Below, one piece after another: positions 4,533 through 56,108 of a DNA stretch of 64,000 nt. The stretch is taken from contig CAVPXI010000007.1 of NCBI GenBank assembly GCA_963709585.1, positions 224,001-288,000 of the forward strand, written 5' to 3'. Within the stretch, counting starts at the first letter, position 1. Every line of letters begins with the position of its first letter. The position numbers were made by a program, and so were the translations under genes. The notes under the pieces are model-generated. The model had not been told where the DNA came from. It was given only the letters and a program-made list of their open reading frames with translations, and ran no database searches. Origin of the DNA: Candidatus Dormiibacterota bacterium. Lineage in GTDB: Bacteria > Chloroflexota > Dormibacteria > Aeolococcales > Aeolococcaceae.

Positions 4533-5220
4533 ATCCTTGGCGATGCGTTGTGCCTAACGCCCCCACATCCGGTTACTAAAGGTGGCGAAGCGAGGTACGA
4601 ACAACCCGAGATTTGCAGCCGCTTCAGAACTCCCACCCGTGCCCGTAGAGCAGATGAGCTATTGAGCGTCGAGAAGAAGCTCTCCGCGGCGACGTCGTCC
4701 CAGCCGTTGCTCTTTCAGCCCGGCACCTTCGACGGTTGCCGTCCGAGAGGACCTCACCAATGACGGCCGGGTGATGCGCCAAGGCCGACGTCGATACCCG
4801 ATCGAGCCGACCCGCTTCAGAGGGTTGTCGCGTGAGTGTGACGAGCGCCTCTGGCAAATGCGAATGCCCTGGCGAGCTATGGCGATGTTGGGCACAAGTC
4901 ACGCACGGTCGCTCAGTGGTCACGAAAGTTCAAACGATGAGATACCTGGCACTCCAAAGGTCAGGGACGGAGAGATTCTGTGACCAGTCAGATGAAACCG
5001 AGATTGAAAGGGGACGCGCACATGGCTCCCGAACGCGCCGCCTCGACCCTGAACCCAGGAGGCGGTTTGCGGGAGTTGACCCGTTTCTTCGCGCACGTCT
5101 CGACGTTCCGAATCCACGACAAGTCGACCGCGCTGCGGGTCGTCTGAACCCGAGCGCAGCGTCATGGAGGGGAGGGTCACGCCGGGGTCGACCGCATTGA
5201 GCGGAAGTCGGGTCAGATCT

Positions 5221-39302: not shown

Positions 39303-40253
39303 TTACCGACTTCCCTGCGCCCGGCGCTTGCCCTCGTGCATGGCTTGAACGCGAGCGACCGGGATGGATCTGCCCTCTTCAAGCAGCTCTGCCCCTAGCG
39401 GCTGTGGCGGCGGCATCCGCATTGCCCATCGGTCGGCATCGCCGAGGTGATGTACGGCGGTGAGCACCGTGAAGTCGGCAGGCGAAATCTCATCCAGCTC
39501 GTCCCAGTCCACTGGAAAAGACACAGGAGCGCCCGGCCGCACACGCGGGCTGTACGCAGCGGCAACGGTTGCCCCGCCGACGCGGGTCGAGTCGACAAAC
39601 ACTTTGCCTGCGCGGTCATCCTTCATGAACGCGGTGGTGACTGTGGCGGGATCCAGTCGCTCGGCTCGTGCGGCGATCGCCCGGGTGGCAGCTGCGGCCG
39701 CATCGATGGACACGGTGCTGTCGATGGGAACGAAGATGTGCAGGCCCTTGGCACCGCTCGTTTTGATGACAGCGTCCAGGCCTTCATCGATAAGGACGCG
39801 CCGTACAACCCGCGCGGCTCGCACGGCGTCGCGGAAGGCATCTCCGTGCGGGGGATCGATGTCGAGCACGAGATACGTCATGTGATCGGGGCTGTCGACG
39901 CGCACCAGCGCCGGGTGATACTCGACAGCGCGCTGGTTACCGAACCACAGCAGTGTCCGCCGGTCATTGCAAAGCGCGTAGGTGACCTCCCGCTTCGACG
40001 ACTCCGCCCACATCGTCACCCGCGGTACCCAGGGAGGCGTGTACGAGGGCAGGTTCTTCTGCATGAAGGCTTCCTGACCCCGGTGCACGCGGATCACCGA
40101 CAGCGCTCGCTCCGCGAGCTCCGGAATGATCCGGTCGGCCACGCTGTCCAGGTAAGTGATGAGGTCTCGCTTGGTTGCCCTCGCCCCTTCGAACAGCGAC
40201 TCGTCGAGGTTGGTCAGCGGCACGCCGAGCGAGGCAGCGTCTGCAAGGCCCAT
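39303..40253 (-). CDS. LigD-type primase-polymerase domain protein (stand-alone)
   Basis: TNLD..LF...TK.DL..Y, F.QK, EYH, LDIDP, KTSGAKGLHI, VF.D, AYSPR.RPGAPVS.P. Confidence 0.85.
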   Translation of the reverse strand: MGLADAASLGVPLTNLDESLFEGARATKRDLITYLDSVADRIIPELAERALSVIRVHRGQEAFMQKNLPSYTPPWVPRVTMWAESSKREVTYALCNDRRTLLWFGNQRAVEYHPALVRVDSPDHMTYLVLDIDPPHGDAFRDAVRAARVVRRVLIDEGLDAVIKTSGAKGLHIFVPIDSTVSIDAAAAATRAIAARAERLDPATVTTAFMKDDRAGKVFVDSTRVGGATVAAAYSPRVRPGAPVSFPVDWDELDEISPADFTVLTAVHHLGDADRWAMRMPPPQPLGAELLEEGRSIPVARVQAMHEGKRRAQGSR

Positions 40254-40357
40254 TAGACTGCCTACGGTACCCCCGCTGTACGGTGCAATCGGGGCTACCC
40301 ACAGGCCGGTAGTGCTTGTCGTTCACCGGATCGTCGACGACTGAGTAGGAGCTTGCG

Positions 40358-40853
40358 ATGACCCGACACCGACAGCGTCCTGGCGACGGTCCTCTTCACG
40401 GACATCGTGGGGTCCACGGAGCGCGCGGCAACGCTTGGCGATCGGGCTTGGCGAGACCTGCTGGAGGCGCACCACGCACTGGTACGACGTGAACTGGCGA
40501 TCCATCGCGGTATAGAAGTCGACACGGCCGGCGACGGCTTGATGGCCAGGTTCGATGGCCCCGCGCGGGCGATTCGTTGTGCTCAAGCCGTCGCTGCGGC
40601 GGTGCGATCGCTCGGGATTGAGATCCGGGCGGGCTTGCATACGGGTGAATGCGAGCTGACGGATGCCGGCCTTGCCGGCATCGCGGTGCACATCGCGGCT
40701 CGCGTCGCGGCGGGAGCGGGACCGAGCGAAGTGCGTGTCTCCAGAACGGTGAAGGATCTCGTCGCCGGATCTGGCATCCGATTCATCGATCTTGGCGCTC
40801 ACTCGCTGAAGGGCGTGCCCGGAGAGTGGGTCTTGTTCCGGGTGGAGCAGTAG
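40358..40853 (+). CDS. Stand-alone class III adenylate/guanylate cyclase domain; +1 indel near 40363
   Basis: RBS AGGAG + ATG one base out of frame with LATVLFTDIVGST; GDG, RAGLHTGE, VHIAARV, LKG. Confidence 0.8.
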
Positions 40854-40898
40854 CAGCACAGGATTCCGCCTCTCAGCGCGCTGAACAGTCGGCAATCG

Positions 40899-41820
40899 CT
40901 AGTCGGTGGCAAGGGCGGCGAACACCGGTTCCAACTGCTCGACCGTGTCGATCGAGGGCGGCCAGGGCATCACTTCCACTCGCGTGACGCCGACTTCTGC
41001 GAAGCGGGCGATCGTCTCGGTGATCTGATCGATCGAGCCGCTGATTGCCACACCGAACCCTGTTGCTTCGGCCAACTTCGCGTCACCCGGCTCGACGAAC
41101 GCGCCGACTGACCGACCGATGGTCGTCGGGTCGCGGCCGATGCTCTCGCAGATCCGATCCAGTTCCCCGGTCATCGTCGCAAAGGCTTCAGGCAGGCTGC
41201 TCGACGTTGCGTATGCGCTCCAGACGTCGGCGTACTTGGCTGCGGCAGTCATCGTGCGCGCCGAATGCCCGCCCATCATCAGCGGAATGTCTCCGGGTCG
41301 CGGCCCACGAGGACGCAAGACAGCGTCCTTGACACGATGAAACTCGCCGTCGAACGTCGAACTTGGCACACCGCGCAGCAACGGCACGATGATCTCCAAC
41401 GCTTCGAGGTAGCGCGTTATCGGCTTGTCGGCCGGATACCCGAATGAACTCGGCGCCACCGCCGTGGCCAGCACCCAGCCCCAGCACGAAGCGTCCACCC
41501 GATATCTCGTCGAGCGCCTCAGCGGCCCGGACGATCATCCCCGGGTTGTGCTGAAGCGCCGACATCACCCACGTTCCGACGCGAACCTTCGACGTGCTAG
41601 CCGCAACCGCGCCGGTCATGGCGAGGCAATCCCACCAGCCTCGGGGACCTGGCCAGTCTTCAACTCGCCAGAGAATCTCGTCCGCCAACCACACCGTGTC
41701 GGCGCCCAGTTCCTCGCCACGACGAGCCCATGTGCTGATGTCCGCCCACGTCGGTTTGCCGCCGTCGTCAGGCCGCTCGTGCATGGGCAGCACCAACCCG
41801 AGGGCGACGCCCTTACCCAT
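40899..41820 (-). CDS. LLM-class flavin-dependent oxidoreductase; +1 indel near 41453
   Basis: G.D.VWLAD, AA.TS.V.VGT.V, LDEISGGRFVLGLGAG; PLMMGG...AAKYAD.W in the next frame. Confidence 0.85.
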
Positions 41821-42054
41821 CGCTCCCCATCGCCACGGCGTGCGCTTGGCCACGGCGACGCATCGGTCCTGCCTCGTACTGCGTCGCGAGGGCTTCGCTC
41901 GACTGATCTTGGCGAACGCCCTTGTGCATCGAGCCGCAGTGTAGCTGCGACGCGGACGTGGCTTCAGCAGCCTGGGGCTCGATCACCGGCGTCCATACCG
42001 CTCCATCACCGATGACAGGTCCTTCTTGTACGCTGGCGCGCTGGAGGTGCGTGA

Positions 42055-42586
42055 ATAAGTCGTGATCCGTACGCCGATCTTCCTCAGGTGCCGTGGTTCA
42101 GCCTGTCGAGCGATGACATCAAGGACGGCAAGCAGTTGCCGTCGGCGCAGCGAAGCGGGATCTTTGGTGCCGGCGGAGAGGACGTGTCGCCCGCCCTCTC
42201 GTGGAGCGGCTTCCCCGAGGGCACGAAGAGCTTTGCTGTGACTGTGTACGACCCCGACGCGCCGACGGCAAGCGGGTTCTGGCACTGGGCCGTCGTCGAC
42301 CTTCCCAGCAGCGTCACCAGTCTGCCGGCCGGCGCCGGTGACCAGGCCGGTCAGCGCCTGCCATCGGGAGCCTTCCATCTTCGCAACGACGGAGGCCTCG
42401 CCGGTTACCTCGGCGCGGCGCCGCCGCCGGGGCACGGCCCTCACCAGTACCACTTCGTGGTGCACGCGGTCGACGTCCCGTCGCTCGGCATCGGCCCCGA
42501 ACTCCACGCCCGCGTTTCTCGGCTTCAATCTGTTCACGCACACGCTGGGCCGCGCGCGCATCGTCTCCTGGTACGAGAACAGCTAG
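42055..42586 (+). CDS. YbhB/YbcL (PEBP/Raf kinase inhibitor-like) protein; ATA start and +1 indel near 42497
   Basis: [30 protein letters not shown]; C-terminus TPAFLGFNL in the adjacent frame. Confidence 0.8.
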
Positions 42587-42602
42587 ATCCCATAAGTTGT
42601 TG

Positions 42603-43805
42603 TCAAGCTAATCCGGCGCTGCCATGCGCCGGATCGAAGTCCTTGTCGCCGCGCCACACGCCCCAGACGATGGCGAGCGCCTTGCTCATGCAGTGACCAA
42701 GGGAGTTCATCGCTGACTTGCCCGCGGCCCGCTTGCGAGCGTAGTGGGCGCGGATGATCGGGTTGTGTTGCACGCCGACCACCGCCATCCGGTACGCCGC
42801 CGCACGCAGATACGAGTTGCCGGTCTTGGCCATGGTCCAGCTCGTCTCGGGGTTCGCACCCTTCTTCCCTGAACTCTGCTCCTTGGGATGCACGCCTGCG
42901 TAGGCGAGCAACTGGTCGACATCGCTGAAGCGCCAGATGTCGCCGATCTCGGCCATGAGTGTGGCCGCGGTGGACGGCCCGACACCGGGAATCGAGAGCA
43001 GCCGCTGCGACACCTCGCCGTCGAGCAGGGAGGCGACCCGGGTGTCCGCGCTGGCGATCTGCTGGTCGAGCAGGTCGTGCTGCGCAATCAGGAGGCGCAT
43101 CTCGAACCCGACCTGCTGCGCGAGTTCCGGCGCAGCCACCGAGGTCTGAGCCAGCTGCTTGAGCTGGCCGGCCTTGAGCGGTCCGATCGCACGGCCACCA
43201 CCGCCCGGACGCTTGAGCCGAGCCAGGCGGTCCTGGTGCATGCGCGCCACGGCCGCGGCGGTCGGCGCGTGGCGGAGCACCGCCAGGGCGCTCACGCAGG
43301 TCGGGTCGTCCCAGACCTCGCGCAGCTCAGGAAAGCCGATGTCCACCAACCGCTGGATGCGCTGGCAGACCTGGGCCTGCTCACGCACCAAACGCATCGC
43401 GAACCGCGCCGCCTCCTTGAGCTCGGCCCCCACCAGGGGCTCGCTGATCCGCGGCTGGTCGTGCGTTCCCAACGCCGCCAGTGTGCGCGCGTCGGCCGGG
43501 TCGCTCTTGCTCCGCTGCAGCCGGCTCTTGGCGAAGTACTTGGCCTGCAACGGGTTCACCACCGCCACCGGATACCCCTGGCGACGCAGGTGGCTGGCCA
43601 GGTTGAACCAGTAGTGGCCGCTCGATTCCATCACCACCACCTCGATCGGCGCTTCCTGCTTCGTCATCCACGCGTCCAGTTCGCCGAAGCCCTTGCGCTT
43701 GGTGGTGATGGTGAGCACCTTCCGATCCGCCTCGCGCTCACCCTGGCGACACACCGCCGCCGCGCACTTGTATGCCCCCACGTCGATCCCCACCGCCAGG
43801 CTCAT
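42603..43805 (-). CDS. IS110 family DEDD recombinase/transposase
   Basis: [17 protein letters not shown] (RuvC-like DEDD); SIPGVG...AEIGD..RF...AYAG..P...SSG (catalytic Ser); RBS AGGAGG. Confidence 0.95.
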
Positions 43806-43844
43806 ACGCACCTCCTGTGTCGGGTTGCGACCCCAGGGGTCCTC

Positions 43845-44020
43845 GCCTTGCTTCGTCGCCGCGTGGGCTGATGCTCCATCACCGGTCACCGCCGTCGGAT
43901 CCCAATCACCGCTCGAAGACGAAGCACGAGGGCCGGTCACTAGCTCCATCGGTCCCGTCGCCGGATAGCTATGCGCCGGTCTCCCCGTCGAGGTCAGATT
44001 CCCCGCGATTCTGACCCTGC
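43845..44020 (-). ncRNA. Putative IS110 bridge RNA
   Basis: 5' hairpin GGTCAGA/TCTGACC; target loop carrying CGCATAGCT and AGCTAG; donor loop closed by TGCTTCGTC/GACGAAGCA carrying TGGGATC and ATCAG; ends approximate. Confidence 0.8.
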
Positions 44021-44035
44021 CAGGAGATATATCAG

Positions 44036-44779
44036 CTATCCGCTGAGCAGGAACTGTTCCGCTTCTCGATACTCGGGATTCTCGGCGACGTGGGTGCCGT
44101 GGGCGATGACCGGATGGGTCCGAAATGCGTCGGCGACGACGTCTGCGCTCAATGCTCTGGTGTCGTAGGGACACACGACTGACATTGGCGTCGAGGCGAA
44201 CGCAAGGTTGAACAACAACTCGTCAGCGAGTCCACGCGATGATCTCCGCGTCGGACCGACCTGCCCAGATGGGCTCCCCCAGGATGCGGACCCAAGATGC
44301 CCCGGCATCGATCTCCTGCTTCACCCATGCGCGATAGCGATCGAGGGCGGCGTTCGGCGAGGTCAGCCAGCCCACCGAGTCCGCGAAGACGACATGACCA
44401 GCGTCCGCCCCGAGTGAGACTCGCAGCAGCTCGATGTGCGCCGCGGACGTCACCGCAAGCGCAGGTTCGGAACGTTCGATTCCTTGGGCAAGGAACGGGA
44501 CGGCCATGGCCAGGAACTCGTCCTCCGACCTGTACGCGAGCACAAGGTGCTCAAGCAGCGGCGGCGAGATCGGCCGGCCCCGATCAGATAGTCGACGCTG
44601 ACGGACAACGCGGTCGCGAGGGCGGTGAGGCTGCTGAGCCGTACGTCCTGGCGCCTGCCCGATTCGATCTGCGCAATGGCCGTCCAGCTCATGCCCGCGT
44701 GGTATGCGAGCGCTTCGCGGCTCCATCCCAGGCGCACCCGAGACGCTCGCAGGGTTTCCCCGATTCGAGACGAAGTCAC
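44036..44779 (-). CDS. XRE HTH + MEDS sensor domain protein; two compensating indels (~44580, ~44223)
   Basis: LRASRVRLGWSREALA...AIAQIESGR; H.VL.Y.S..EF....VPFL..G..R.E; RILGEP.W; VCPYD...THP. Confidence 0.75.
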
Positions 44780-44862
44780 ACGCGCCTCTTTAGGCCTCCG
44801 TAGCCGCGCATTTGTCCCGCCAAACTCGCCAACCCCGCCAGTATGTCATATGCGCGTGTCAG

Positions 44863-44891
44863 TTGACACCGACGCCTTAGCCCCCAATAAT
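44863..44891 (+). promoter_or_regulatory. Sigma70-type promoter (leaderless)
   Basis: TTGACA-N17-AATAAT, 6 nt before in-frame GTG 44898. Confidence 0.55.
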
Positions 44892-44897
44892 CTACAC

Positions 44898-45353
44898 GTG
44901 GCCGTGGAGCGTCTTCGGGAAGGCTTGGATCTGGAGCCCTTGGGGGCGGAAGGGCGTGCGGGTCGCCGCCCCTTCCAGGAGTCTGGGTACGCGGCTTATC
45001 GCTCCTCGCCAACAGGCTCCGACCACGAGCAGCTTACGCAGCGTCCGAGCGACCGGGTTGCGGAGCTCGAGGCGCGCCTTCGGCGCATCGCTGCCGAGCT
45101 CAAAGCCGCAGGGGTGATAGACGGCATCGACACCCCTCCCCCTGCGACGGATTACCCCCAGCTCGACGAGCTCAGCAGCCGGCAGCGAGAGATCCTTATC
45201 CGCCTCCTCAACGCCCAACGCGTGTCGGTCATTGCTGCGGAGCTCTACGTCAGCCCGAGCACGGTGCGCAACCACCTGGTGACGATCTTCACCAAGTTCG
45301 GCGTGCACTCGCAGGTGGAGTTGCTCGCCGCCCTCCGCCGTCACCAGCGTTAG
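44898..45353 (+). CDS. LuxR-type C-terminal HTH regulator
   Basis: LSSRQREIL..L.....V..IA.ELYVSPSTVRNHL..IF.KFGVHSQ.EL; start uncertain. Confidence 0.8.
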   Translation: MAVERLREGLDLEPLGAEGRAGRRPFQESGYAAYRSSPTGSDHEQLTQRPSDRVAELEARLRRIAAELKAAGVIDGIDTPPPATDYPQLDELSSRQREILIRLLNAQRVSVIAAELYVSPSTVRNHLVTIFTKFGVHSQVELLAALRRHQR

Positions 45354-45389
45354 CTCTGTTCAGGTCATCGCGGGACGGGGAGAATCGAT

Positions 45390-45434
45390 TGGCTGGGGAG
45401 GGAGGATTCGAACCTCCGATTGGCTGATCCAGAA
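45390..45434 (-). tRNA. 3' fragment of tRNA-Gln(CUG), att-like; not a complete tRNA
   Basis: Minus strand TTCTGGATCAGCCAATCGGAGGTTCGAATCCTCCCTCCCCAGCCA: anticodon CTG, T-arm GGAGG-TTCGAAT-CCTCC, CCA end; upstream bases cannot form the D-arm, anticodon stem or acceptor 5' strand. Confidence 0.85.
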
Positions 45435-45857
45435 TTACTCGTTCCAGGTTGCACCTCCAAAACTCGCTCCGTGGGCCTCGACAACATCATCTAACCTTAC
45501 TCATCACGTGCTGTGCATCGACTAATCGGGTGCGGGGGGTCGATTTGGAGTGACTAATCAAGTGCAGCGCAACGCCCGAAAATCGCTCGAAATTTAGGAC
45601 CTGATGATACAAAATTAGCCGCTCCTCAACACGCCGCAAAAAACCCCGAGTCCAAGCTCCCGGATGTCGCCGGTGCATCTGTTCTAGCCATGCTTGTCGT
45701 GAACTTGCCTGCCGGGTAGGTTGGAGCGCCGGTCATCGCCGCGCACCCGCTGCTGATCGGGCGGATCGCTTCAGGCGTCCGCTGTGACCCCGGTCGCGAT
45801 GACGGTGGCGCTACAACTCCAACGTCGACGCCGGCGCTCTCTGGACGCTCGGCAACT

Positions 45858-46193
45858 CTAGGCTGTGATGTCGCGGTACCAGAAGCTCGCGCCAGCGACG
45901 ACCGACATCCCGACGGCGTAGAGACCCGCCATGATCAGCGCAGTTGTGTAGGACACGCTCGAGCCTGCCTCATTGAACACGCTCGCCTGACCGCCAGTCA
46001 GGACCACCGACAGGATCCGCCCCGGGAGGTATTGACCGACGGTCGGCTCGACCTGGTTGACCAGGCCTTCGATCACCAGCAACCATGCGATCGCGGCGCC
46101 AACCGCGCCCGCAGGATTGCGGACCAGCACGGCGACCAATGTGCCGAAGATCGTCCACCCAATGACCGCAAGCAGGTGGGATACGACCGGCAC
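45858..46193 (-). pseudogene. ABC-2 type permease C-terminal fragment
   Basis: LVRNPAGAVG...W..VIE.L...YLPG...F..RDITA; N-terminal half absent. Confidence 0.65.
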
Positions 46194-46199
46194 TACCGC

Positions 46200-46768
46200 C
46201 TACCTTGAATTCCTCGGCAACCTCGTGCATCGAGCGTCCGACTTCGTTGGGCGCTTCAATCTCGTCAGCCTCGATGCGGTCGAGGCGATATCCCAAACGC
46301 GCAGGCACTGCAGCACTCCGTACATTTGCCTCGTCGCAGTGGATCTCCACACGTATGACTTCCATCCAAGCCGAGGGCGGTGTCTGTCAGAAGCCGGGCC
46401 GTCTCGGTGACGAGGCCGCGTCGTACAAAACGTACGTCGATCCAATACCCTACTTCAAACCCGCTCTCGCCGACACGTGGATGGAGGCCACATCCGCCTA
46501 CAAACGTCCCGCTGTGTCGCATCGTGATCGCATAGTTGGCAGAGGAATCATCACCATAATCACTCGCCGCAAACGTAACAAAGTCACGCACTGACTCTTC
46601 GGTCGGCGGCGACTGAGCCCATTGCATCCACCCCCGCAAATGGTCAAAGCTGGCCTGGAGGGCGGCCAGCACCACGGGGGTGTCGTCGGGATAGCGGTAT
46701 CTGCGCAATACGACTCTTGACCCGGCGATCTCCTCGGGCGGGCGATGTATGCGCACGCCAACGATCAT
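46200..46768 (-). pseudogene. RimJ/RimL-type GNAT acetyltransferase, frameshifted ~46360 and 3' truncated
   Basis: S.DHL..WM.WA, VGGCGLH.R, EVGYW; VEIHCDEANVRSAAVPARLGY in the next frame. Confidence 0.7.
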
Positions 46769-47043
46769 ATGCGGACGACGCTCAATCCAAACCCGAACGC
46801 TCCCACGCGATCGCTCTCAGCGTGGACGCCACTTGCGTGCGTCCACGGGGACCCTGAAACCGGTAACCGCTCTGGAGCGCGCCCGCGGAAGGCTGCCGTG
46901 CGCAGAGCGATGGGTGCGGGGCTCGCTTCAAGATTCGAGCTTCGTTCCGCTGTCGGGAACGCGGCCGAGCGCAAGGCCATGAATCATGGATGCTATGCGC
47001 GCCGCGACGAACGCCAATTAGTGTCGCTGACGGGAGTAACGGC

Positions 47044-48297
47044 TCAGGCAGTGGCGACCACGATGGCGCTGGTGACCTTGGGCCTCCGGGGCGACGTTGC
47101 GGCGATCAGCAGCATGGCCCCGACACCCGCCGTTGTCTCGATCGACCCGCTCCACGGCACCCCCAACCCCGAAAGGACCAGGATCGTCACGCTGCCGGTC
47201 ACCATCCCGGCGAAGAGACACAAATAGACGAGCCCATTCACCCGACCGAGCAGCTCAGGCGCCGAGTGGCGCTGCATCGCGATATTGCCCCACACCTCCG
47301 AGACCTCAGCGGCGACGCCAGATGCGAGCAGGGCGGCGGCGCAGGCGAGAAGCATCGGGCTGAAGGGGAGTAGCGCGAGACTCGCCAGCTCGGCCAATCC
47401 CAACCCCAGCAGTGCGCGTCCAGTCAGGCGAGGGCGGAGCTTGAGACTAAGCGCCCCGCCGATGAGTCCACCGGCGCCGACGGCTGCGTAGAGCCAACCG
47501 ACCGAGCTCGTCGCACCGAAGTGCCCGGCCACGCCAACCAGCACCGCCGAGGTCACTGTGACGACCCCGCCGTTCACGAAGCTGAGCACAGCGAGACTGC
47601 GAAGCGTGCTGTCCCGAAACACGGGCCGCACAGCGGCAAACGGCGACGGCAGGCTGTGGTCAGGAGCACCACCCGTGCGACGGCCAGGCAGCGAGAAAAG
47701 CAGAGCTGCGGCGACTGCGAAGCTGGCGACGTCGACCCAGATGAGAGTTACCGGGGACATGATGGCAAGGGCAAGCGCTCCGAGGGCAGGACCAACGAGC
47801 ATGGCGCTGCTGTTGCCGATGCTGCGCAGCGAATTGACCCGGCTGAGGTGTTCCGGGCGCGCCACCAAGGGCACCAAGGCGCCCTCACACGGCGCCGACA
47901 ACGCGCCGGCTGCCTGGCCGAACCCGACTGCAATGCAGATGCCGACCACGGTGTCCTCCTGGGCGGCGACGATGATCGCCGCGGTGGCCACTCCCTGAAC
48001 TGCGTAGCCGAGGGCGGCGACGCGGGCCGGTCCGAAGCGGTCGGCGAGCGACCCCCCTAAGGTTGTTCCGAGGAGCCGAGGCGCCACGCGGGCGAACATG
48101 TAGGCGGCGGGTCCGGCGGGGCTCTGCGTAAGCCGATAGACGACCATCATGACGGCGACCGTGGTCAGCCAGTTCCCGGACTGGGAGAGAACGACCGCGG
48201 TAAGAAATCGACCAGCCGGTCCAGTGGGGTCCGAACGCCGAGCCGACACACCGGTCTCGATGCGGCTCGGCTCGGCCTGAGGCTTCGGTGCGGTCAT
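47044..48297 (-). CDS. MFS transporter (macrolide-efflux/DHA3-like exporter)
   Basis: About 12 TM segments; S..G.WL..VA, GGSLADRFG, L.RVNSL, GPALG, LLGRVNG; RBS GGAG. Confidence 0.88.
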   Translation of the reverse strand: MTAPKPQAEPSRIETGVSARRSDPTGPAGRFLTAVVLSQSGNWLTTVAVMMVVYRLTQSPAGPAAYMFARVAPRLLGTTLGGSLADRFGPARVAALGYAVQGVATAAIIVAAQEDTVVGICIAVGFGQAAGALSAPCEGALVPLVARPEHLSRVNSLRSIGNSSAMLVGPALGALALAIMSPVTLIWVDVASFAVAAALLFSLPGRRTGGAPDHSLPSPFAAVRPVFRDSTLRSLAVLSFVNGGVVTVTSAVLVGVAGHFGATSSVGWLYAAVGAGGLIGGALSLKLRPRLTGRALLGLGLAELASLALLPFSPMLLACAAALLASGVAAEVSEVWGNIAMQRHSAPELLGRVNGLVYLCLFAGMVTGSVTILVLSGLGVPWSGSIETTAGVGAMLLIAATSPRRPKVTSAIVVATA

Positions 48298-48366
48298 GGA
48301 TCTCTTGCTCCCTAATGAAGAGGGGAGGGAGCCCCGACACGCCGCCGGAACTCCGTCCGCACTGGT

Positions 48367-48543
48367 CTACCAATGGTTGTTGTGGCTGAACCAATGGCAT
48401 GTGTCACCGTCGCCGTCGCTGTGCCGCCACCCGCCCACGCTGGTGTCGCTATAGGTCCAGTGGCCGTTGTCGCCGTCGCTGTGGCCCCAGCGGCCGGTGT
48501 CGCTGACCGTGGCGCTGTGGCACCAATGTCCGTTGTCGCTCAT
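48367..48543 (-). CDS. 58-aa Trp/His/Asp repeat peptide (below the ORF-track cutoff)
   Basis: Manual translation MSDNGHWCHSATVSDTGRWGHSDGDNGHWTYSDTSVGGWRHSDGDGDTCHWFSHNNHW*; RBS GGAG 7 nt upstream; co-oriented with the MFS gene. Confidence 0.75.
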   Translation of the reverse strand: MSDNGHWCHSATVSDTGRWGHSDGDNGHWTYSDTSVGGWRHSDGDGDTCHWFSHNNHW

Positions 48544-48741
48544 CGTTGATCTCCGGCGAGGGTCCGTCTCCTCGAGGCGGTCCGACCCTCATCAGGTACG
48601 GCGCCAGAAGTCCTCTCGCGTTGTCAAAAACAGTCTGGCGACTTCCTTCTGCGAGCGGACAGCTGTCAAGGCTTGGGCGACTGGGACGTCACTCAGCACT
48701 GCGTTGATGGGACCCGTAGGTCATGTTGGTGTGCCGCTGCT

Positions 48742-50138
48742 GGTCAAGTCCCGCGTAGTGGTGTGAATTCGGTGGAGTTCTCACAACGTCGTTGAACTAC
48801 GCGACGAGTCCCTCCGTGAGCGGGTTGGTGAGCAAAGGCGGACCGTCGGGGTGCATCACACGAGCCATCGACTGCTGACTGAAGTGGCGACGTCCGTCCT
48901 GCCATTCGTCGTGCTGGTCCTGGAGCACCGCGGTGAACAGACGGAGCAGTGAGGCCGTGTTGGGGAAGATGCCCACCACCTTGGCGCGGCGGTCGAGCTC
49001 AGCGTTGACCCGCTCGATGGCGTTGGTCGACGAGATCGAGCGCCAGTGGTCGACCGGAAAATCCAGGTAGGCGAGCACATCGGCCTCCGCAGCGCGGAGC
49101 TTGGCTGCCACCGTAGGGAAGCGTGGCTCGAGCACGTTGAGCGCATGCTGCACGGCGTCACGAGCGGTCTCGCGAGTTGGCTGCAGGAAGATTGACTTCA
49201 CCACCGCGAGCACCGCCGGAGCGTGCAGCTTGGGCACGGCGCTCGCCACGTTGCGCAGGAAGTGCACCTTGCAGCGCTGCCAGGTGGCGCCTGCGAACAC
49301 CTGGGATAAGGCGCTGCGCAGTCCCTCATGGGCGTCGGAGATGACCAGCTGCACGCCGCTCAGCCCGCGCCGGGCCAGGCTGCGGCAGAACTCCAGCCAG
49401 AAGGCCTCGGTCTCGCTGGCGCCGATGGCCAGGCCGAGCACGCTCTTCTCGCCGGTCTCACGCACTCCCACAGCGACGACCGCGGCCTGGCTCACGATCC
49501 GAGCGCCCTGACGCACCTTCTCGTAGGTGGCGTCGAACCAGACGTACGGGTACGGCTCATCGAGGGGGCGCTCGCGGAACTCGGCGAGCTCCTCGTCGAG
49601 CAGCGCGCAGATCCGGCTCACCTCGCTGCGACTGATGCTGCAGCCTCCCAGCGCGGCCATGAGGCCGTCGACCTTGCGGGTGCTGATGCCGAGCACATAC
49701 GCCTCCTGAACCACCGCGAGCAGGGCGCGATCAATGCGCCGCCGCGGCTCGAGCAAGGTCGGGAAGAAGCTTCCAGAACGCAGCTTGGGGATCTGCAGCT
49801 CGAGGCGCCCCGAGCCGGTGTCGAGGATCCGCTCCCGGTAGCCGTTGCGGTACGTGGTCCGGTTCGCCGCTCGCTCGTGCGGGCCGGCGCCGATCTGGGT
49901 GGCCGCCTCGGCTTCGATCAAGCGCTGCATCGCATGTTCGAGGACGCGTCGCAAGACGTCCGTGTCTGCGCCTTGGAGTTGCTCGAGCAGTGCCGGGGGC
50001 ATCATCCTGTTCTGGGCCATCGTGGGTCTCCTGGTTTGGGTAAGAGCTTCCAAGAGAACTCCGCGGTGGCCTTCTTTGTCTACCTCGTCGGCAGCGCTGG
50101 GGTCACCCCGGATTTACACCACACTACGGGACATCACT
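48742..50138 (-). mobile_element. IS256-family element
   Basis: Imperfect terminal inverted repeats GGTCAAGTCCCGCGTAGTGGTGTGAAT / AGTGATGTCCCGTAGTGTGGTGTAAAT; no flanking direct repeat. Confidence 0.88.
48797..50020 (-). CDS. IS256 family DDE transposase
   Basis: YRNGYR.R, IPKLRSGSFFP, GISTRKV, WFDATY, ISDAHEGL, WQRCKVHF.RN, STNAIER.N. Confidence 0.95.
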   Translation of the reverse strand: MAQNRMMPPALLEQLQGADTDVLRRVLEHAMQRLIEAEAATQIGAGPHERAANRTTYRNGYRERILDTGSGRLELQIPKLRSGSFFPTLLEPRRRIDRALLAVVQEAYVLGISTRKVDGLMAALGGCSISRSEVSRICALLDEELAEFRERPLDEPYPYVWFDATYEKVRQGARIVSQAAVVAVGVRETGEKSVLGLAIGASETEAFWLEFCRSLARRGLSGVQLVISDAHEGLRSALSQVFAGATWQRCKVHFLRNVASAVPKLHAPAVLAVVKSIFLQPTRETARDAVQHALNVLEPRFPTVAAKLRAAEADVLAYLDFPVDHWRSISSTNAIERVNAELDRRAKVVGIFPNTASLLRLFTAVLQDQHDEWQDGRRHFSQQSMARVMHPDGPPLLTNPLTEGLVA

Positions 50139-50337
50139 ATCTCTGGTCGGAGTAAGACCTCTGGGCAGAGGAAGATCCCAGATCGGGTATCCGCGTGGAG
50201 TGCCTCCACCGGAGCTACGATCACCTCTCAAATGGCAGGGGATGGTCAGTTGGTCTCGGGGGTCAGGAACTCGGCTCTGAATGCCGGAGCATGTGGACTC
50301 GGGTTAGACCCGGTATAGGGAACTTAACGGCCTCACC

Positions 50338-50500
50338 ATGACCACTGCATTAGTCGCTTCGTCTGATCTCAATCAGTGGACCAACCTCCCGATTCAGCTA
50401 ACCCGTTTCGTCGGCCGCAGAGCCGACGAGATTGAGGAGGTGCAGACCTCCCTACCGGAGGCTCATATAGTCATGCTCACCGGAGCCCGTCGGGATTGCC
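50338..50500 (+). pseudogene. N-terminal remnant of an ATPase-LuxR/NB-ARC type regulator
   Basis: TNLPIQLTRFVGR..EIEEV...L....IVMLTG, breaking off at the Walker A position. Confidence 0.55.
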
Positions 50501-50594
50501 AATTCCCGCGGGAGATGAGCATGCCCGTTCAGGCGCCAACTCGCGGCACACCACGGAGAGCCAACCTCGAGGCGCCGCAGGGTTTGGCAATTTC

Positions 50595-53500
50595 ATGAGT
50601 GACGAAGGGCTGCAGCTGGGCCTTGAGGGTTTTGCTCACGCCAGCGAGCTAGGTCGTGGCGGCTTCGGGGTCGTGTACAAGGCCTGGGAAACAGCGCTCC
50701 GACGGTGGGTTGCCATCAAAGTCCTGGACATCGGCCGTCTCAACGGATCGGCCCGCGAGCGCTTCACCCATGAGCTGCAGGCAGCGGCCCGGGTGTCAAC
50801 CCACCCCAACATCGTCACCATCTATGGGCAAGGCTTCGATGTTGCGGAGCGCCCTTGCATCATCATGGAGTGGATGGCAAAGGGGGCTCTGCAGAGCCCT
50901 GAGGTCGCAGCTCATCCCTGGCCATGGCAGCGCGCGGCCGAGACCGGCGTCAAGCTGTGCGGAGCATTGCAGGCGGTGCATCGGAGCGGCATCGTGCATC
51001 AGGACGTCAAGCCTGAAAACGTGTTCCTCTCAGAATATGACGAACCCGCCATTGGAGACTTCGGTGCTTCCGTGATCCAAAGCGTGCGGTCCACAGACTA
51101 TGCCCACCGCTATCTGACCATTGCTCACGCCGCTCCTGAACTGCTCAGCGGGGCTGACCCTGATCCCCGCATGGACATCTATGCGTTGGCCTCGAGTTTG
51201 GTGGCTTTGCTCCGCGGGTTTCCCCCTTTCTCGAATGCGTCTGGCGACACACCGGCCCTGATCATCGAGCGCATTCGGAATTCAGAGCCGCCTGACTTGC
51301 GGCCGCTAGGTGTTCCTGATCCATTGTGCACCACGCTAGAGCGAGCCTTAGCAAAAAATCCCGGAAACCGTCCGCAGACTGCGGGAGAGTTTGGCGAGGC
51401 CCTCCGGAGTGCTCAGCAGGCGGTTGGATTGTCGCCGACGCCAATAGTGGTCTCCAATCTCCCACTGGAGGCACACACCGCACCCAAAACGACAACCTAC
51501 GAAATGATTAGGCGGCACTCGTTGGATTCTTCGCCGCGTGCGGCGAAACCCATTGCCACCACGCCTGCCGCTCGCGAGGAGCGCAAGGTGATCACGGTTT
51601 TGTGCGCCGAACTGGGCCGATTCAGGGCTGGCGACGCGCTGGATCCTGAGGATATGCGAGCGCTACTCGCTCCAGCCTTGGCGCGGCTGCGGGTTGACCT
51701 TGAGCGCTTCGGAGGCACCGTCGCGAGCGTAGTCGGTGACTCGGTCATGGCCCTCTTCGGCGTGCCGATCTCGCATGAGGACGACCCTGAGCGGGCAGTG
51801 CGGGCAGCGCTGGCGATTCGCGAATGGGTGCTCGAGGATGACGTACTCCAACTGATCATTGCCATTAATACCGACGAGGCATTGGTCAGCTTTAGCCCCG
51901 GCTCCACCGATCGTGAGGCGGTGGCAGAAGGCGAAGTGATCACAGCGACCGCTCGCCTTCAGGCAGCGGCGCCGGACAACCACGTCCTGGTCGGCGAGAC
52001 GACGTATCGGGCGACATCACAGGTCATCACATACGGAGGCGTTGGGTCTCTCGCCGTCAAGGGCAAAGCTGAGCCGCTGCGGGTGTGGGAGCCACTCGGG
52101 GCGCGCTCTCGATTCGGCGTCGACCTTACGTCCGCGCTCCGCTCGCCGCTCGTCGGTCGAACTCATGAGCTGGGTGTTCTCGCGGACGCGCTCGAGCGGG
52201 TGCGACTTGAATGCTCCCCACGGCTCATCACTCTTGTTGGCGTTCCAGGAATCGGAAAGAGCCGCATGGTGGCTGAACTCTTCCGCACGATCGATGACAA
52301 CCCGAACGAAATCGTGTACTGGCGGCAGGGGCGCTCACTGCCGTACGGCGACGGGGTCACATTTTGGGCTCTTGGGGAAATGGTGAAGGCCCAGACGGGG
52401 ATCCTGGAGACGGACTCACAAGATGCGGCTGAGGACAAGCTGCGGACATCGGTTGCTGAGCTCATCCATGATGTGACAGACGCGCCGTGGGTCGAGGGCC
52501 ACCTGCGCCCTCTTGTCGGGCTCGGGAGTGGTGCGGCGGTCGGCAGCGATCGTCGGGACGAGGCTTTTGCGGCATGGCGACGCTTCTTTGAGAGGTTGGC
52601 CGAACTCAGGCCACTTGTGCTCGTCTTCGAGGATCTCCACTGGGCGGACGACAACCTTCTCGATTTCGTCGAATACCTCGTTGAATGGACCATCGGCGTG
52701 CCTATCCTCATCGTCTGCACGGCCCGCCCCGAGTTGTTCGAGCGAAGGGAAACATGGGCCGGAGGCACGCGGCACGCCACCACGCTCTCGCTCTCGCCCC
52801 TTTCGGACGAGGAGACGGCGCGACTGATCAGCAACCTCAGCGAGCGACCGGTGATGGCAGCCGCCACACAGCGGGCGCTCCTGAGCCGCGCCGGTGGCAA
52901 CCCGCTTTACGCCGAGCAGTACATCCGCATGCTCGCCGAACGCGGGGAAGCCGAGGAGTTTTCGCTGCCGGAGACGGTGCAGGGCATCATCTCGGCTCGG
53001 CTCGACGCCCTGCCCGCTGAGGAGAAGGCCCTACTGCAATCTGCGGCGGTTATCGGGAAGGTCTTCTGGCTAGGCGCGGTAGCGCGGGCGAGCGGAATGG
53101 ACCGCCGGGCTGCGGAGTTGCTTCTCCATGCCTTGGAGCGGAAGGACTTCCTCCAGAGAGCGCGCCGCTCGTCGGTAGCAGACGAGGCGGAGTACACATT
53201 TCTCCACGTCCTAGTCCGCGATGTCGCCTATGGACGGATTCCCCGCGGCGCTCGCGCCGAGGAGCATCGCCTGGCTGCCGAATGGATCGGGTCGTTGGGT
53301 CGGGCCGAAGACCACGCAGAGATGCTCGCACACCACTACCTCAGTGCCATCGAACTGTGGCGAGCGGCCTCGCAACCCATCGATCCCGTTGTCGGCGAGC
53401 AGGCCCTGGCGAGTGTGTCTGAATCTGGCGATCGCGCGATGTCGCTAAGCGCCTATTCAAGCGCAGTCGGCTTCTACCAGTCCGCGTTGGAGCTTGCAGC

Positions 53501-54803
53501 GCAGGGATCGCGGGAGCGGGCGCAGTTGCTGTTCAAGCTCGGCCAGACACTGGACATCTCCGGGGATCCCCAGCCCGAACTCCTTGCCGCGGCCTGCGAG
53601 GAATTGGAGGCAGTCGGCGACACCGAAACAGCTGCCGAGGCTGAGGCGACCCTCGCCGATTTGCATTGGCATCGAGGGGACACCGATCGCTCCGCCGAAC
53701 ACATAAGCCGCGCCCGCGAGCTGGTGGATGGGCGGGAGCCGTCACGCGCAACTGCGTCGGTCATGAGCAGTATCTCGAGGCGCCTGCTGATGGCTGGTGA
53801 GAGTGCTGAAGCGATCCGCTTCGGTCGGGAGGCACTGGGTTTTGCGGAAAAGCTTGCTATAGACGAATTGCGCGCGCGCGCCCTGAACTACATCGGCGCC
53901 TCAAGGCTGGACAGCGGCGACCGCGGTGGCTTCGGGGACCTTGAGCAGAGCCTTGCGATTGCGGTGGAGGCGAATGTTCCGACCGCGATCTGCGCGGCGC
54001 AGATGAACCTCACTACGGCGCTTTTTCTTGACGGTCAACTCGAGCGTTCGGCCGCCTTAGTGCAGGCGGCGACCGAGACGGCTTCCCGATACGGTCTGAT
54101 CAGAGACCTGCTCTGGATACGCGGGGGGGAGGCTGCTGACGCCTTTTACCGCGGTGATTGGGACGGGGCACTGGCTCTGGATAACGAGTTCATCACCGGG
54201 ATCGAGTCCGGTTCGCCGCACTACTACGCCGCGTGTTGGTATTCCACGCGAGCTCAGATCCGGCTTGGACGCGTTGACGATCTGGGAGCACTCGGGGATG
54301 CCGAGTCCGCGCTAGGGTTCGCCCGTCTGACTAAGGACCCCCAGATACTTTTCCCGGCGCTGTCGGTGTGCGCGAACATATTCCGCGAAACGGGCGACGC
54401 CGAACGATCGGCCGGGCTTGCCGATGAACTACTCGCGCATTTGCGAGTCGGAACAGGGACCATCCCGGCCGTTTGGCCCTTCCACATCCTCGCTTGGACG
54501 CTGTACGCCCTGGGACGAGGAGAGGAGTTGATCGCCAATCTCCCGCAGTCGGATGTGCCCTGGGTGCGTGCAGCACTCGCGTTTAGTGGCGGCGACATGC
54601 GCCGGTCCGCGGACATTTGTGGCGAGATGGGCGCAGCCTCCGAGGAGGCGCACGACCGGCTCTGGCTCGCAGCGTCGCTGATCGAGCAGAACCGTCGCGC
54701 CGACGCGGACATTCAGCTGCAGCGGGCCCTCGCCTTCTACCGCTCGGTAGGCGCGACCCGCTACATCCGCGAAGCAGAGCGTCTGCTCACTGCGTGCGGC
54801 TAA
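50595..54803 (+). CDS. Ser/Thr kinase - degenerate class III cyclase - STAND AAA ATPase - TPR protein
   Basis: LGRGGFGVVY, VAIK, HQDVKPEN, DFG, APE; EERKVITVL, GDSVMALFG.P..HEDD.ERA; Walker A GVPGIGKS, Walker B VFEDLHW, GGNPLY; helical repeats. Confidence 0.9.
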   Translation: MSDEGLQLGLEGFAHASELGRGGFGVVYKAWETALRRWVAIKVLDIGRLNGSARERFTHELQAAARVSTHPNIVTIYGQGFDVAERPCIIMEWMAKGALQSPEVAAHPWPWQRAAETGVKLCGALQAVHRSGIVHQDVKPENVFLSEYDEPAIGDFGASVIQSVRSTDYAHRYLTIAHAAPELLSGADPDPRMDIYALASSLVALLRGFPPFSNASGDTPALIIERIRNSEPPDLRPLGVPDPLCTTLERALAKNPGNRPQTAGEFGEALRSAQQAVGLSPTPIVVSNLPLEAHTAPKTTTYEMIRRHSLDSSPRAAKPIATTPAAREERKVITVLCAELGRFRAGDALDPEDMRALLAPALARLRVDLERFGGTVASVVGDSVMALFGVPISHEDDPERAVRAALAIREWVLEDDVLQLIIAINTDEALVSFSPGSTDREAVAEGEVITATARLQAAAPDNHVLVGETTYRATSQVITYGGVGSLAVKGKAEPLRVWEPLGARSRFGVDLTSALRSPLVGRTHELGVLADALERVRLECSPRLITLVGVPGIGKSRMVAELFRTIDDNPNEIVYWRQGRSLPYGDGVTFWALGEMVKAQTGILETDSQDAAEDKLRTSVAELIHDVTDAPWVEGHLRPLVGLGSGAAVGSDRRDEAFAAWRRFFERLAELRPLVLVFEDLHWADDNLLDFVEYLVEWTIGVPILIVCTARPELFERRETWAGGTRHATTLSLSPLSDEETARLISNLSERPVMAAATQRALLSRAGGNPLYAEQYIRMLAERGEAEEFSLPETVQGIISARLDALPAEEKALLQSAAVIGKVFWLGAVARASGMDRRAAELLLHALERKDFLQRARRSSVADEAEYTFLHVLVRDVAYGRIPRGARAEEHRLAAEWIGSLGRAEDHAEMLAHHYLSAIELWRAASQPIDPVVGEQALASVSESGDRAMSLSAYSSAVGFYQSALELAAQGSRERAQLLFKLGQTLDISGDPQPELLAAACEELEAVGDTETAAEAEATLADLHWHRGDTDRSAEHISRARELVDGREPSRATASVMSSISRRLLMAGESAEAIRFGREALGFAEKLAIDELRARALNYIGASRLDSGDRGGFGDLEQSLAIAVEANVPTAICAAQMNLTTALFLDGQLERSAALVQAATETASRYGLIRDLLWIRGGEAADAFYRGDWDGALALDNEFITGIESGSPHYYAACWYSTRAQIRLGRVDDLGALGDAESALGFARLTKDPQILFPALSVCANIFRETGDAERSAGLADELLAHLRVGTGTIPAVWPFHILAWTLYALGRGEELIANLPQSDVPWVRAALAFSGGDMRRSADICGEMGAASEEAHDRLWLAASLIEQNRRADADIQLQRALAFYRSVGATRYIREAERLLTACG

Positions 54804-54851
54804 GCAGGCTCTAGTGCATGGGGCCGCCGCATATTGGAGCGGAAACTGATC

Positions 54852-55781
54852 ATGACCGGGAGCACCTTCCTCGAGATCCGATCGGGTAACGATTCTGAAA
54901 TCGTTCCACTAGCCGAAGACAACATCACCATCGGGCGTGCCTTGGGCAACGGTTTGACCATCGACGACCCCGGTGTGTCGCGGCTTCATGCGCGCATACA
55001 AAGGCTACAGTCGGGGTGGAGTGTCAGCGACCTTGGAAGCCGCAACGGGACCCACGTGAACGGACAACCCTTGTCTCGTCCGGCGGTTCTCCACGACTGC
55101 GATGAAATACAGATCGGAGGCACCACAATCCGTTTCCGAGAGACTACTGCAAGCCCCATCGCCATCACTCTACCTCTGTCGTCGAGGGCTGTTCATGACC
55201 AAGCCGCGGCCAATACCTTCGTGCGGGGGGGCGAATTCTGGTCACTGACCTACGGCGGTGTGGTTGCGCGCCTCAGGGACAGCAAGGGGCTGCGGGACAT
55301 CGCTCGGCTCCTCGGGACGCCAGCGAGGGAGGTGGCCGCGGTGGATCTTGCGGGGGGAAATCTTGTTGACATCGCGAGGCGGCCGGCGACGGTCGGAGAG
55401 CTTGAACTCGGGGTGGAAGGCGACGTAGGAGAGGCGCTCGACGCTGAGGCGAGAGCGCAGTATCGGACTCGCCTGTTCGATCTCGAGGAGGAGATCGCCG
55501 ACGCAGAGGCGAACAACGATCCGGAGCGAGCCAGCCGCGCGCGCGATGAGCGAGAGTTCCTGCTCGGCGAGCTCGGGACCGCGGTAGGTTTGGGCGGCCA
55601 CGCTCGACGGATGCTCGATCCTGCGGAACGGGCGCGCAAGGCAGTCACTGGACGGATCCGGGATGCGATCGGGCACATCGAGACGGCCCATCCGGAGTTG
55701 GGGCGGCACCTGCGCCGTTCGATCCGTACAGGCAGCTTCTGCGTCTACGACCCGCCCGAACCGACGGACTGGCAGCTATAG
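54852..55781 (+). CDS. FHA domain + C-terminal putative DNA-binding output domain
   Basis: IGR...VSRLHA...DLGSRNGT.VNG; C-terminal GEFW...SKGL...LD.EAR.QYR...GLGG...ERARKAV...IRTG.FC.Y.P. Confidence 0.85.
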   Translation: MTGSTFLEIRSGNDSEIVPLAEDNITIGRALGNGLTIDDPGVSRLHARIQRLQSGWSVSDLGSRNGTHVNGQPLSRPAVLHDCDEIQIGGTTIRFRETTASPIAITLPLSSRAVHDQAAANTFVRGGEFWSLTYGGVVARLRDSKGLRDIARLLGTPAREVAAVDLAGGNLVDIARRPATVGELELGVEGDVGEALDAEARAQYRTRLFDLEEEIADAEANNDPERASRARDEREFLLGELGTAVGLGGHARRMLDPAERARKAVTGRIRDAIGHIETAHPELGRHLRRSIRTGSFCVYDPPEPTDWQL

Positions 55782-55892
55782 CCGCGGCGCCAGGGAAGGT
55801 GCCAGACCCGATCTGTCAGTGCTACCTGCGTTCTGGCGCCGTACTCGATGAAGGTCGCTCGCCAGGGCGATCACCTCGAAGAGGAGCGAGTA

Positions 55893-56108
55893 ATGGCCAC
55901 CACGAGCGCCGATCAGGAACAGACCGAATTGTCGGAAGCCGAGTTCGACGCGACGAACATGGCGGGATCCAACATTGACGAACTTGAGCGTGCCGCGATG
56001 GCGCGATACCGGAATTTGCAGGCTCTGTGGGAGACAGTCAGGCAGGCGGCCCGATGTGCGGACGCTCTAGCTCGGCTTGACGCCGCGCTCGCACGCCAAG
56101 CCGGATAG
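55893..56108 (+). CDS. Small hypothetical protein
   Basis: RBS GAGGAG; 71 aa, helical-looking. Confidence 0.45.
   Translation: MATTSADQEQTELSEAEFDATNMAGSNIDELERAAMARYRNLQALWETVRQAARCADALARLDAALARQAG

Follow-up and report, generated by a model that had tools for sequence, protein, structure and literature searches.

In the genome of a Candidatus Dormiibacterota bacterium (GenBank assembly GCA_963709585.1), we analysed a 64,000-nucleotide (nt) stretch of contig CAVPXI010000007.1 (positions 224,001 to 288,000, hereafter the window; coordinates given without a contig or locus name are those of the window), in which an open reading frame (ORF) of 58 amino acids (aa) made of Trp repeats (48367..48543, minus strand) lies directly ahead of a gene of the major facilitator superfamily (MFS; 47044..48297, minus strand). 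The reading we favour, with a probability that we put at about 0.38, is that the 58-aa ORF is translated and, acting mainly in cis in the manner of a leader, governs the MFS exporter. It is more likely to be the exporter's translated control element than a natural-product precursor, which is how an initial annotation of this DNA had proposed to read it. The ORF bears a coding signature and has a homologue, and an association between upstream ORFs and MFS genes extends across the lineage. As would be expected of a leader ORF, it is small, sits directly upstream of the exporter gene on the same strand and appears to have its own Shine-Dalgarno sequence.

Read directly from the DNA, the 58-aa ORF consists of units of roughly G-x-W-x-[HY]-S-D at a spacing of ~10-12 aa, which run from residue 3 to the last residue. 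Trp stands at positions 7, 19, 29, 39, 51 and 58, the peptide also has eight His and two Cys, and the C-terminal Trp is followed by the stop codon TAG. The GC content at codon positions 1/2/3 is 0.51/0.56/0.88 in a genome of 66.8% GC. Four W-x-[HY]-S motifs are present, a number that none of 20,000 shuffles of the same composition reached; the peptide matches itself best at an offset of 22 aa, with 13 identities, which 74 of 20,000 shuffles equalled, and Tandem Repeats Finder reported a 30-nt period with two copies. The off-frame Trp-rich ORFs that are typical of high-GC DNA are Arg-rich, unlike the 58-aa ORF: a Trp content of 9% or more is seen in 155 of the genome's 19,952 six-frame ORFs of 40-120 aa, and just seven of these, this ORF included, keep Arg at 6% or below. 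The ORF has no second copy in the genome, and contigs from four DNA soil runs of one study carry it in identical form at ~3x depth, with no variant and no joint free of the neighbouring insertion sequence (IS). It had no match in Pfam, NCBIfam or the ESM Atlas clusters. Judged by its sequence, the ORF is real and coding-like, above chance, and nearly an orphan.

Only one credible homologue of the peptide was identified, a metagenomic protein of 60 aa (P0001) that forms a singleton cluster and comes from a 582-bp ENA contig (E = 3.7e-10 when searched alone, E = 1.3e-31 with a profile). All six Trp are kept in P0001, along with the Gly residues that precede them and the Ser-Asp that succeed them, and the gaps in the alignment are whole codons. 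Just two of the eight His (H41 and H50) are kept, as are C49 and one N-terminal Cys. Beyond P0001, searches of 60 relatives and of a draw of 400 genomes from the phylum did not turn up the ORF, and neither it nor an orthologue of its MFS neighbour is present in 41 other genomes of the genus or 373 other genomes of the class. Pattern matches were obtained in a genome contig collection (35) and a viral contig collection (45), none of which was confirmed; metagenome contigs gave no confirmed relative and plasmids no match, and the exact 58-aa sequence is missing from ~15 billion predicted proteins of public genomes and metagenomes. Because small ORFs are under-called, as the 58-aa ORF itself was, scarcity in protein databases counts for little as evidence; the six-frame searches, however, point the same way. 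Several other candidates were rejected. P0002 (1067 aa) and P0003 (379 aa), from a search of representative sequences, are unrelated translations of long tandem repeats. The match in L002 (E = 5.8e-4) arises from a Pro/Thr-repeat protein gene read off-frame, that in L009 lies off-frame inside another ORF, and those in L084 and L085, which have TGA at Trp positions, are off-frame within a 432-aa gene.

The association with MFS genes comes from an alignment of the regions upstream of MFS relatives, which revealed a Shine-Dalgarno-preceded short ORF of 10-11 codons with the pattern M-A-[NST]-W-G-D-x-x-x-W(-G). A regular expression picks out this short ORF, ~250-300 nt ahead of the MFS gene, in 55 of the 70 loci fetched, and one further locus (L064) has a variant of it; for the 58-aa form the count is a single homologue. 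Of the 14 remaining loci only L040 was checked, and several others look, by their coordinates, like second copies or contig-truncated loci. L040 does not have the short ORF and has a different upstream regulator. In that locus a divergent gene for a 966-aa regulator, by eye SARP/ATPase/TPR-like, occupies 2774-5674 (minus strand) and the MFS relative 5935-7239 (plus strand). The source genome of the window has its own canonical copy of the short ORF on another contig (C8:115053), ahead of its MFS pair.

Across 34 distinct short ORFs, Ala2 is written with all four of its codons (17/9/5/3) and Asp6 with GAC in 16 and GAT in 18, while neither Trp nor the Gly codon GGC varies. The stop codon may be any of the three, and GGAG stands 5-8 nt before the ATG. 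This codon pattern is the signature of a translated ORF constrained at the peptide level, with an RNA-level constraint on its centre. The ~250 nt from the short ORF to the MFS start form a highly conserved, covarying leader RNA with conserved hairpin loops, the first hairpin of which starts 0-12 nt past the stop of the short ORF. In this RNA 93.2% of cells are paired, as against 39-52% with the partners slid, double changes are seen in 16 of 33 pairs, and 0 of 500 shuffles reached the observed values; these figures carry the caveat that the alignment used to test the structure had also served to derive it. No Rfam match was obtained at the gathering threshold for six leader loci. Literature searches on Dormibacter, none of them aimed at this RNA itself, found no riboswitch report, and those on its leader peptides brought up work on secondary-metabolite potential.

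The neighbourhood of the canonical short ORF is likewise conserved, with a divergent HisKA_3 kinase and a receiver-only protein followed by one MFS gene (as in L043) or two (as in L050), and we found no modifying enzyme in it. Class-wide, the order of the module is HisKA_3 kinase, receiver-only protein, short ORF with a GGAGG site, leader RNA and one or two MFS genes; examples are C8:115030-115399 in the source genome itself and loci L011-L077, such as L050:5770-6058. The canonical MFS genes (L011-L072) apparently start at a conserved CTG ~8 nt past a GGAGG-like site (columns ~360-368 of leader profile A3), with GTG in L057.

The MFS gene of the window encodes a 417-aa protein of the 12-transmembrane type, predicted from Pfam and NCBIfam comparisons to be an exporter (DHA3/EntS/Mef-like). 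It matches PF07690 (MFS_1) with 80.2 bits (cut-off 33.4) and PF05977 (MFS_3) with 38.2 (cut-off 27). None of the best NCBIfam matches, which are to the DHA3-type H+ antiporter subfamily, EntS, Tap and Mef(C), reaches its curated cut-off, and TIGR00900 scores 120.8 against a cut-off of 319.6. In a protein search its homologues were P0005 (88% identity, also 417 aa) and P0006 (54%), which come from short contigs of 2574 bp (NCBI) and 1477 bp (Logan) respectively, and the rest had at most 45% identity; L068 and L072 are 49-50% identical to it over the best tblastn segment. Relatives at 38-50% identity represent a conserved gene of Candidatus Dormibacterota that often occurs as a tandem pair.

To place this protein we used a quick maximum-likelihood tree, midpoint-rooted for drawing only, in which branches with a Shimodaira-Hasegawa-like approximate likelihood ratio (SH-aLRT) of at least 95 were marked as supported; the tree includes an 18-row long-branch clade of off-frame rows that was disregarded, not removed. 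The window MFS, P0005 and P0006 form a clade (support 100, marked) nested within a clade of 24 MFS rows (support 99, marked), and this smaller clade is sister to the 'second copy' type (support 87). In L068 and L072, the nearest relatives with a known context, a short ORF directly precedes the MFS gene. From the placement of the window MFS and this context it follows that the 58-aa ORF occupies the position usual in the family for a Trp-containing leader ORF. The initial annotation had proposed to look for a homologous ORF beside MFS relatives; none of 58-aa type was found among the fetched loci, where the different ORF of 10-11 codons stands instead. A scan for Trp-rich ORFs beside these relatives gave only off-frame ORFs rich in Arg, Trp, Ser and Pro, and no longer upstream ORF with a high GC content at third codon positions (GC3) turned up.

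The layout around the 58-aa ORF suggests how such control might operate. A Shine-Dalgarno-like GGAG (48551..48554, minus strand) lies 7 nt before the ATG, and the spacer to the co-oriented MFS gene is 69 nt. Within this spacer, an 11-bp G+C-rich hairpin (48328..48354, minus strand; -18.9 kcal/mol) starts 12 nt past the ORF stop, followed by a C/U-rich tract (48308..48327, minus strand) whose CUCCC is predicted in the minimum-free-energy structure to pair with the MFS gene's GGGAG Shine-Dalgarno. From these features and the canonical modules we infer that the 58-aa ORF is homologous or analogous to the short ORFs, and that stalling and an RNA switch may operate. We propose that a divergent MFS copy in an IS-rich accessory locus carries a longer, internally repeated Trp-rich ORF in the leader position. 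Ribosomes translating its six UGG-containing repeats and terminating at the W-stop would sit 12 nt before a stable hairpin, the pyrimidine tract after the hairpin may mask the exporter's Shine-Dalgarno, and the speed or arrest of translation on the ORF would set the amount of exporter. Candidates for the factor that slows translation would be the supply of Trp-tRNA, free Trp, an indole-like ligand or a ribosome-targeting compound.

The layout had been described correctly in the initial annotation, which reported the Trp positions and the His and Cys counts, a ribosome-binding site, an MFS gene ~70 nt downstream and an IS256 element ~200 bp upstream, and the tie that it drew between the small ORF and the MFS gene is strongly backed by the Trp-containing upstream ORFs of related loci. 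It had also described a hairpin upstream of the ORF. The inverted repeat is indeed present (48558..48590, minus strand), but its RNA fold is no better than chance (-19.6 kcal/mol, z = -1.21; equalled by 26 of 200 shuffles).

Several observations weigh against a leader function. At 58 aa the ORF is long for a leader. A whole-genome nhmmer search with the leader profile A3, at E values up to 10, returned only C8:115030-115399 and left the 58-aa ORF unmatched. The predicted RNA folds are not better than those of shuffles (z = -0.91 for the 69-nt spacer, -1.30 for a 276-nt context and -1.85 for the hairpin, which 11 of 200 shuffles matched and whose stem recurs in the longer fold), and a scan found no U-tract terminator between the 58-aa ORF and the MFS gene. 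P0001 does not have the W-stop ending, and the conservation of the repeat pattern over its full length, together with the 22-aa periodicity, has the look of constraint at the protein level. A promoter and terminator scan returned 0 promoters and one terminator-like site, located within the MFS gene; Rfam gave no match over 44000-51000 at E values up to 1, and a search of 40000-56000 found no tRNA.

If the leader reading is correct, an uncultured soil lineage controls a conserved exporter pair via a Trp-containing mini-ORF and a structured RNA, and the 58-codon form would show how a leader ORF can grow by internal duplication; the whole would make a compact and easily testable reporter system. 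A bolder version, which we consider quite unlikely, is that the 58-aa ORF is a tandem expansion of a hitherto undescribed, class-wide Trp-containing sensor ORF of Dormibacteria exporter operons, in which each repeat would serve as a unit of nascent-peptide arrest or of sensing, or else that both kinds of ORF encode peptides exported by the MFS protein and sensed by the kinase. If true, this would amount to a multi-module arrest peptide or to a new peptide-signalling system in an uncultured lineage.

Among the other explanations, we would regard as doubtful, though worth serious attention, that the ORF encodes a stand-alone small acidic protein (pI 5.6, charge -5.8) of Trp-ladder beta-hairpin repeats that is merely co-transcribed with the exporter, and that might be held together by a single metal site of Cys2His2 type or by a disulfide, or might bind Ca2+ via Asp-Gly loops. 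The G-x-W-x-[HY]-S-D units are kept over the full length of P0001 with C49, H41, H50 and an N-terminal Cys, the double unit recurs at 22 aa, and AlphaFold places a strand on each Trp motif (residues 6-8, 20-22, 28-32, 38-42 and 49-52), although the model is unreliable (predicted local distance difference test score, pLDDT, 47; predicted template modelling score, pTM, 0.25). The sole PDB profile match, to the hairpin region of protein G, is not significant (E = 0.47). Such a protein would be without hydrophobic core residues (0 Leu, 0 Ile, 2 Val), has no family or Atlas match, and leaves the Trp-containing upstream ORFs of related MFS genes unexplained. Six of the eight His are not conserved; the initial suggestion of a His-based metal binder found no support.

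We think it unlikely that the ORF is non-functional or decaying in an IS-ridden patch, or that it is a former N-terminal extension of the MFS protein severed by an in-frame TAG. Elements of the IS256 and IS110 families and gene fragments do lie nearby, the absence of the ORF and the MFS orthologue from other genomes of the genus and class and of the exact sequence from the predicted proteins would fit, and the ORF and the MFS gene share one reading frame (48295-48546, minus strand), where only one TAG and a spacer of 23 open codons separate them. However, the GC3 of 0.88 and the good Shine-Dalgarno argue otherwise, and the spacer has a GC3 of only ~0.65 by hand count and is therefore not coding-like. 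Because P0001 ends at nearly the same place, the stop does not appear to be a recent accident, and P0005 also has 417 aa.

Least probable of all, in our estimate, is that the ORF is the precursor of an exported peptide, either a multi-core peptide synthesized ribosomally and modified post-translationally (RiPP) with aromatic-x-aromatic or Trp cross-links or an unmodified multi-copy signal, with the MFS protein as its exporter and the canonical short ORFs as single-copy versions possibly sensed by the neighbouring kinase. The repeated W-x-[HY] motifs, the adjoining predicted exporter, the divergent HisKA_3 kinase and receiver beside the canonical module, and the precedent of WprA, in which three evenly spaced WPR motifs are cross-linked by a radical S-adenosylmethionine (SAM) enzyme (PMC11851443), would all be in keeping with it. 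Yet the Pfam scans of 54 window ORFs (8 + 20 + 26) found no maturase or peptidase family, and in particular no radical-SAM/SPASM, P450, MNIO, ATP-grasp or YcaO member, in line with the earlier remark that the window holds no maturase; the canonical neighbourhood gave none either. The genome, which is 88.8% complete, has 0 matches to PF13186 (SPASM) and 0 to PF00067 (P450), searches that each scored in 8 of the 14 genomes used as controls; the genome-wide searches took in SPASM, P450 and MNIO, but neither ATP-grasp nor YcaO. It does have two MNIO genes (PF05114), both outside the window (L081, G000:C21:127491-131264; L082, G000:C14:415897-419670), but each directly follows a gene for a ~240-250-aa membrane-type protein ending in Cys-Gly-Gly repeats, and these Cys-Gly-repeat proteins are, from their arrangement, likely the own substrates of the adjoining MNIO enzymes. 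Since the repeats of the 58-aa ORF begin at residue 3, there is no leader or recognition region, nor are there obvious cleavage sites, and the 250-nt covarying RNA behind the short ORF fits regulation better than production.

The multi-core RiPP precursor proposed at the outset is therefore not supported, with nothing positive in its favour beyond the repeat itself. The broader proposal of an undescribed peptide system survives in part: the ORF is coding-like, has one homologue and belongs to no Pfam or NCBIfam family, while the RiPP or metal-binding nature ascribed to it found no support. As a caution, a repeat-rich small ORF beside an exporter should not be called a RiPP precursor when no maturase accompanies it.

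The region around the ORF is an accessory, decaying, IS-rich patch. Its upstream part is bounded by an IS256-family element (48742..50138, minus strand), the transposase of which (PF00872, 427 bits) is co-oriented with the ORF and the MFS gene. The element was delimited with the help of its terminal inverted repeats and of a second copy, 91% identical, that lies on contig C4, and its end lies 198 nt from the ORF ATG. In the soil runs the IS256 family reaches a depth, summed over contigs, of ~40-400 in X1-X3 and 2-30 in X4, with flanks at 0-7, and it occurs there in many variants with loose ends at both IS termini. Solo IS256 end fragments are found elsewhere in the genome on contigs C13 and C14. 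Also in the window are an IS110-family element (42603-44174), an apparent fragment of a luciferase-like monooxygenase of which only profile positions 114-228 were matched (40899-41498), a 111-aa hydrophobic ORF that appears to be a gene fragment and has no family (45858-46193), and an 86-aa ORF, also an apparent fragment, which to the eye looks like the beginning of a signal-transduction ATPase (50338-50598). Further away, a protein of 1797 aa that contains 17 Ig-like repeats of the Big_3_5 family (854.6 bits; 5164-10557, plus strand) adjoins two TIG-domain proteins (420-2435 and 2748-4532). Two genomes of the same genus have only LigD in common with the window.

Among known systems, the C-terminal hairpin of GB1 and the tryptophan-zipper peptides resemble the 58-aa peptide in a strand-turn sequence of the type G-x-W-T-Y-[SD]-D; the PDB match behind this is not significant, and modelling gave no reliable fold for the 58-aa peptide. 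Compared with the canonical short ORF of its own lineage, the 58-aa ORF takes the same position before a member of the MFS family, is likewise rich in Trp, Gly, Asp, Asn and Ser, follows a strong Shine-Dalgarno, has a Trp at or next to the stop and is succeeded by a G+C hairpin at most 12 nt past the stop; the two differ in length (58 versus 10-11 codons) and in spacer (69 versus ~255 nt), and there is no match between them at the profile level. A resemblance may also be drawn to leader ORFs that sense amino acids or ligands, such as TnaC, the trp leader and mgtL: there too Trp features, as codon or as residue, in a short ORF upstream of a transporter or metabolic operon that has a long leader. 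The key residues differ in spacing and sequence from those of the 58-aa ORF. Multi-motif precursors of Trp cyclophane RiPPs, such as WprA and the triceptides, resemble the 58-aa ORF in having evenly spaced Trp-x-x motifs along a short peptide. Those precursors adjoin a radical-SAM/SPASM enzyme and a RiPP recognition element (RRE) protein, whereas the window has neither and the genome has no SPASM match (PMC11851443).

Closest in arrangement are two regulatory leaders of exporters: Mef(E)L, a leader of 8 codons that has an AGGAGG site, lies within a 5' region of 327 nt and governs mef(E)/mel, an MFS pump operon (PMC4335068), and BmrB, a 53-aa ORF that serves as the regulatory leader of bmrCD (PMC4191407). 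Neither has sequence similarity to the 58-aa ORF with its internally repeated Trp/Asp/Gly/His sequence, and the structured RNA that lies between or overlaps the leader and exporter genes in those systems has its counterpart here in predicted folds that are not significant and in which no terminator/antiterminator pair could be demonstrated. In both systems, as in the window, a small ORF preceded by a Shine-Dalgarno sequence lies directly upstream of a co-oriented drug-type exporter. Mef, moreover, is an MFS pump of the group that the window MFS weakly matches, and BmrB, at 53 aa, is close in length to the 58-aa ORF.

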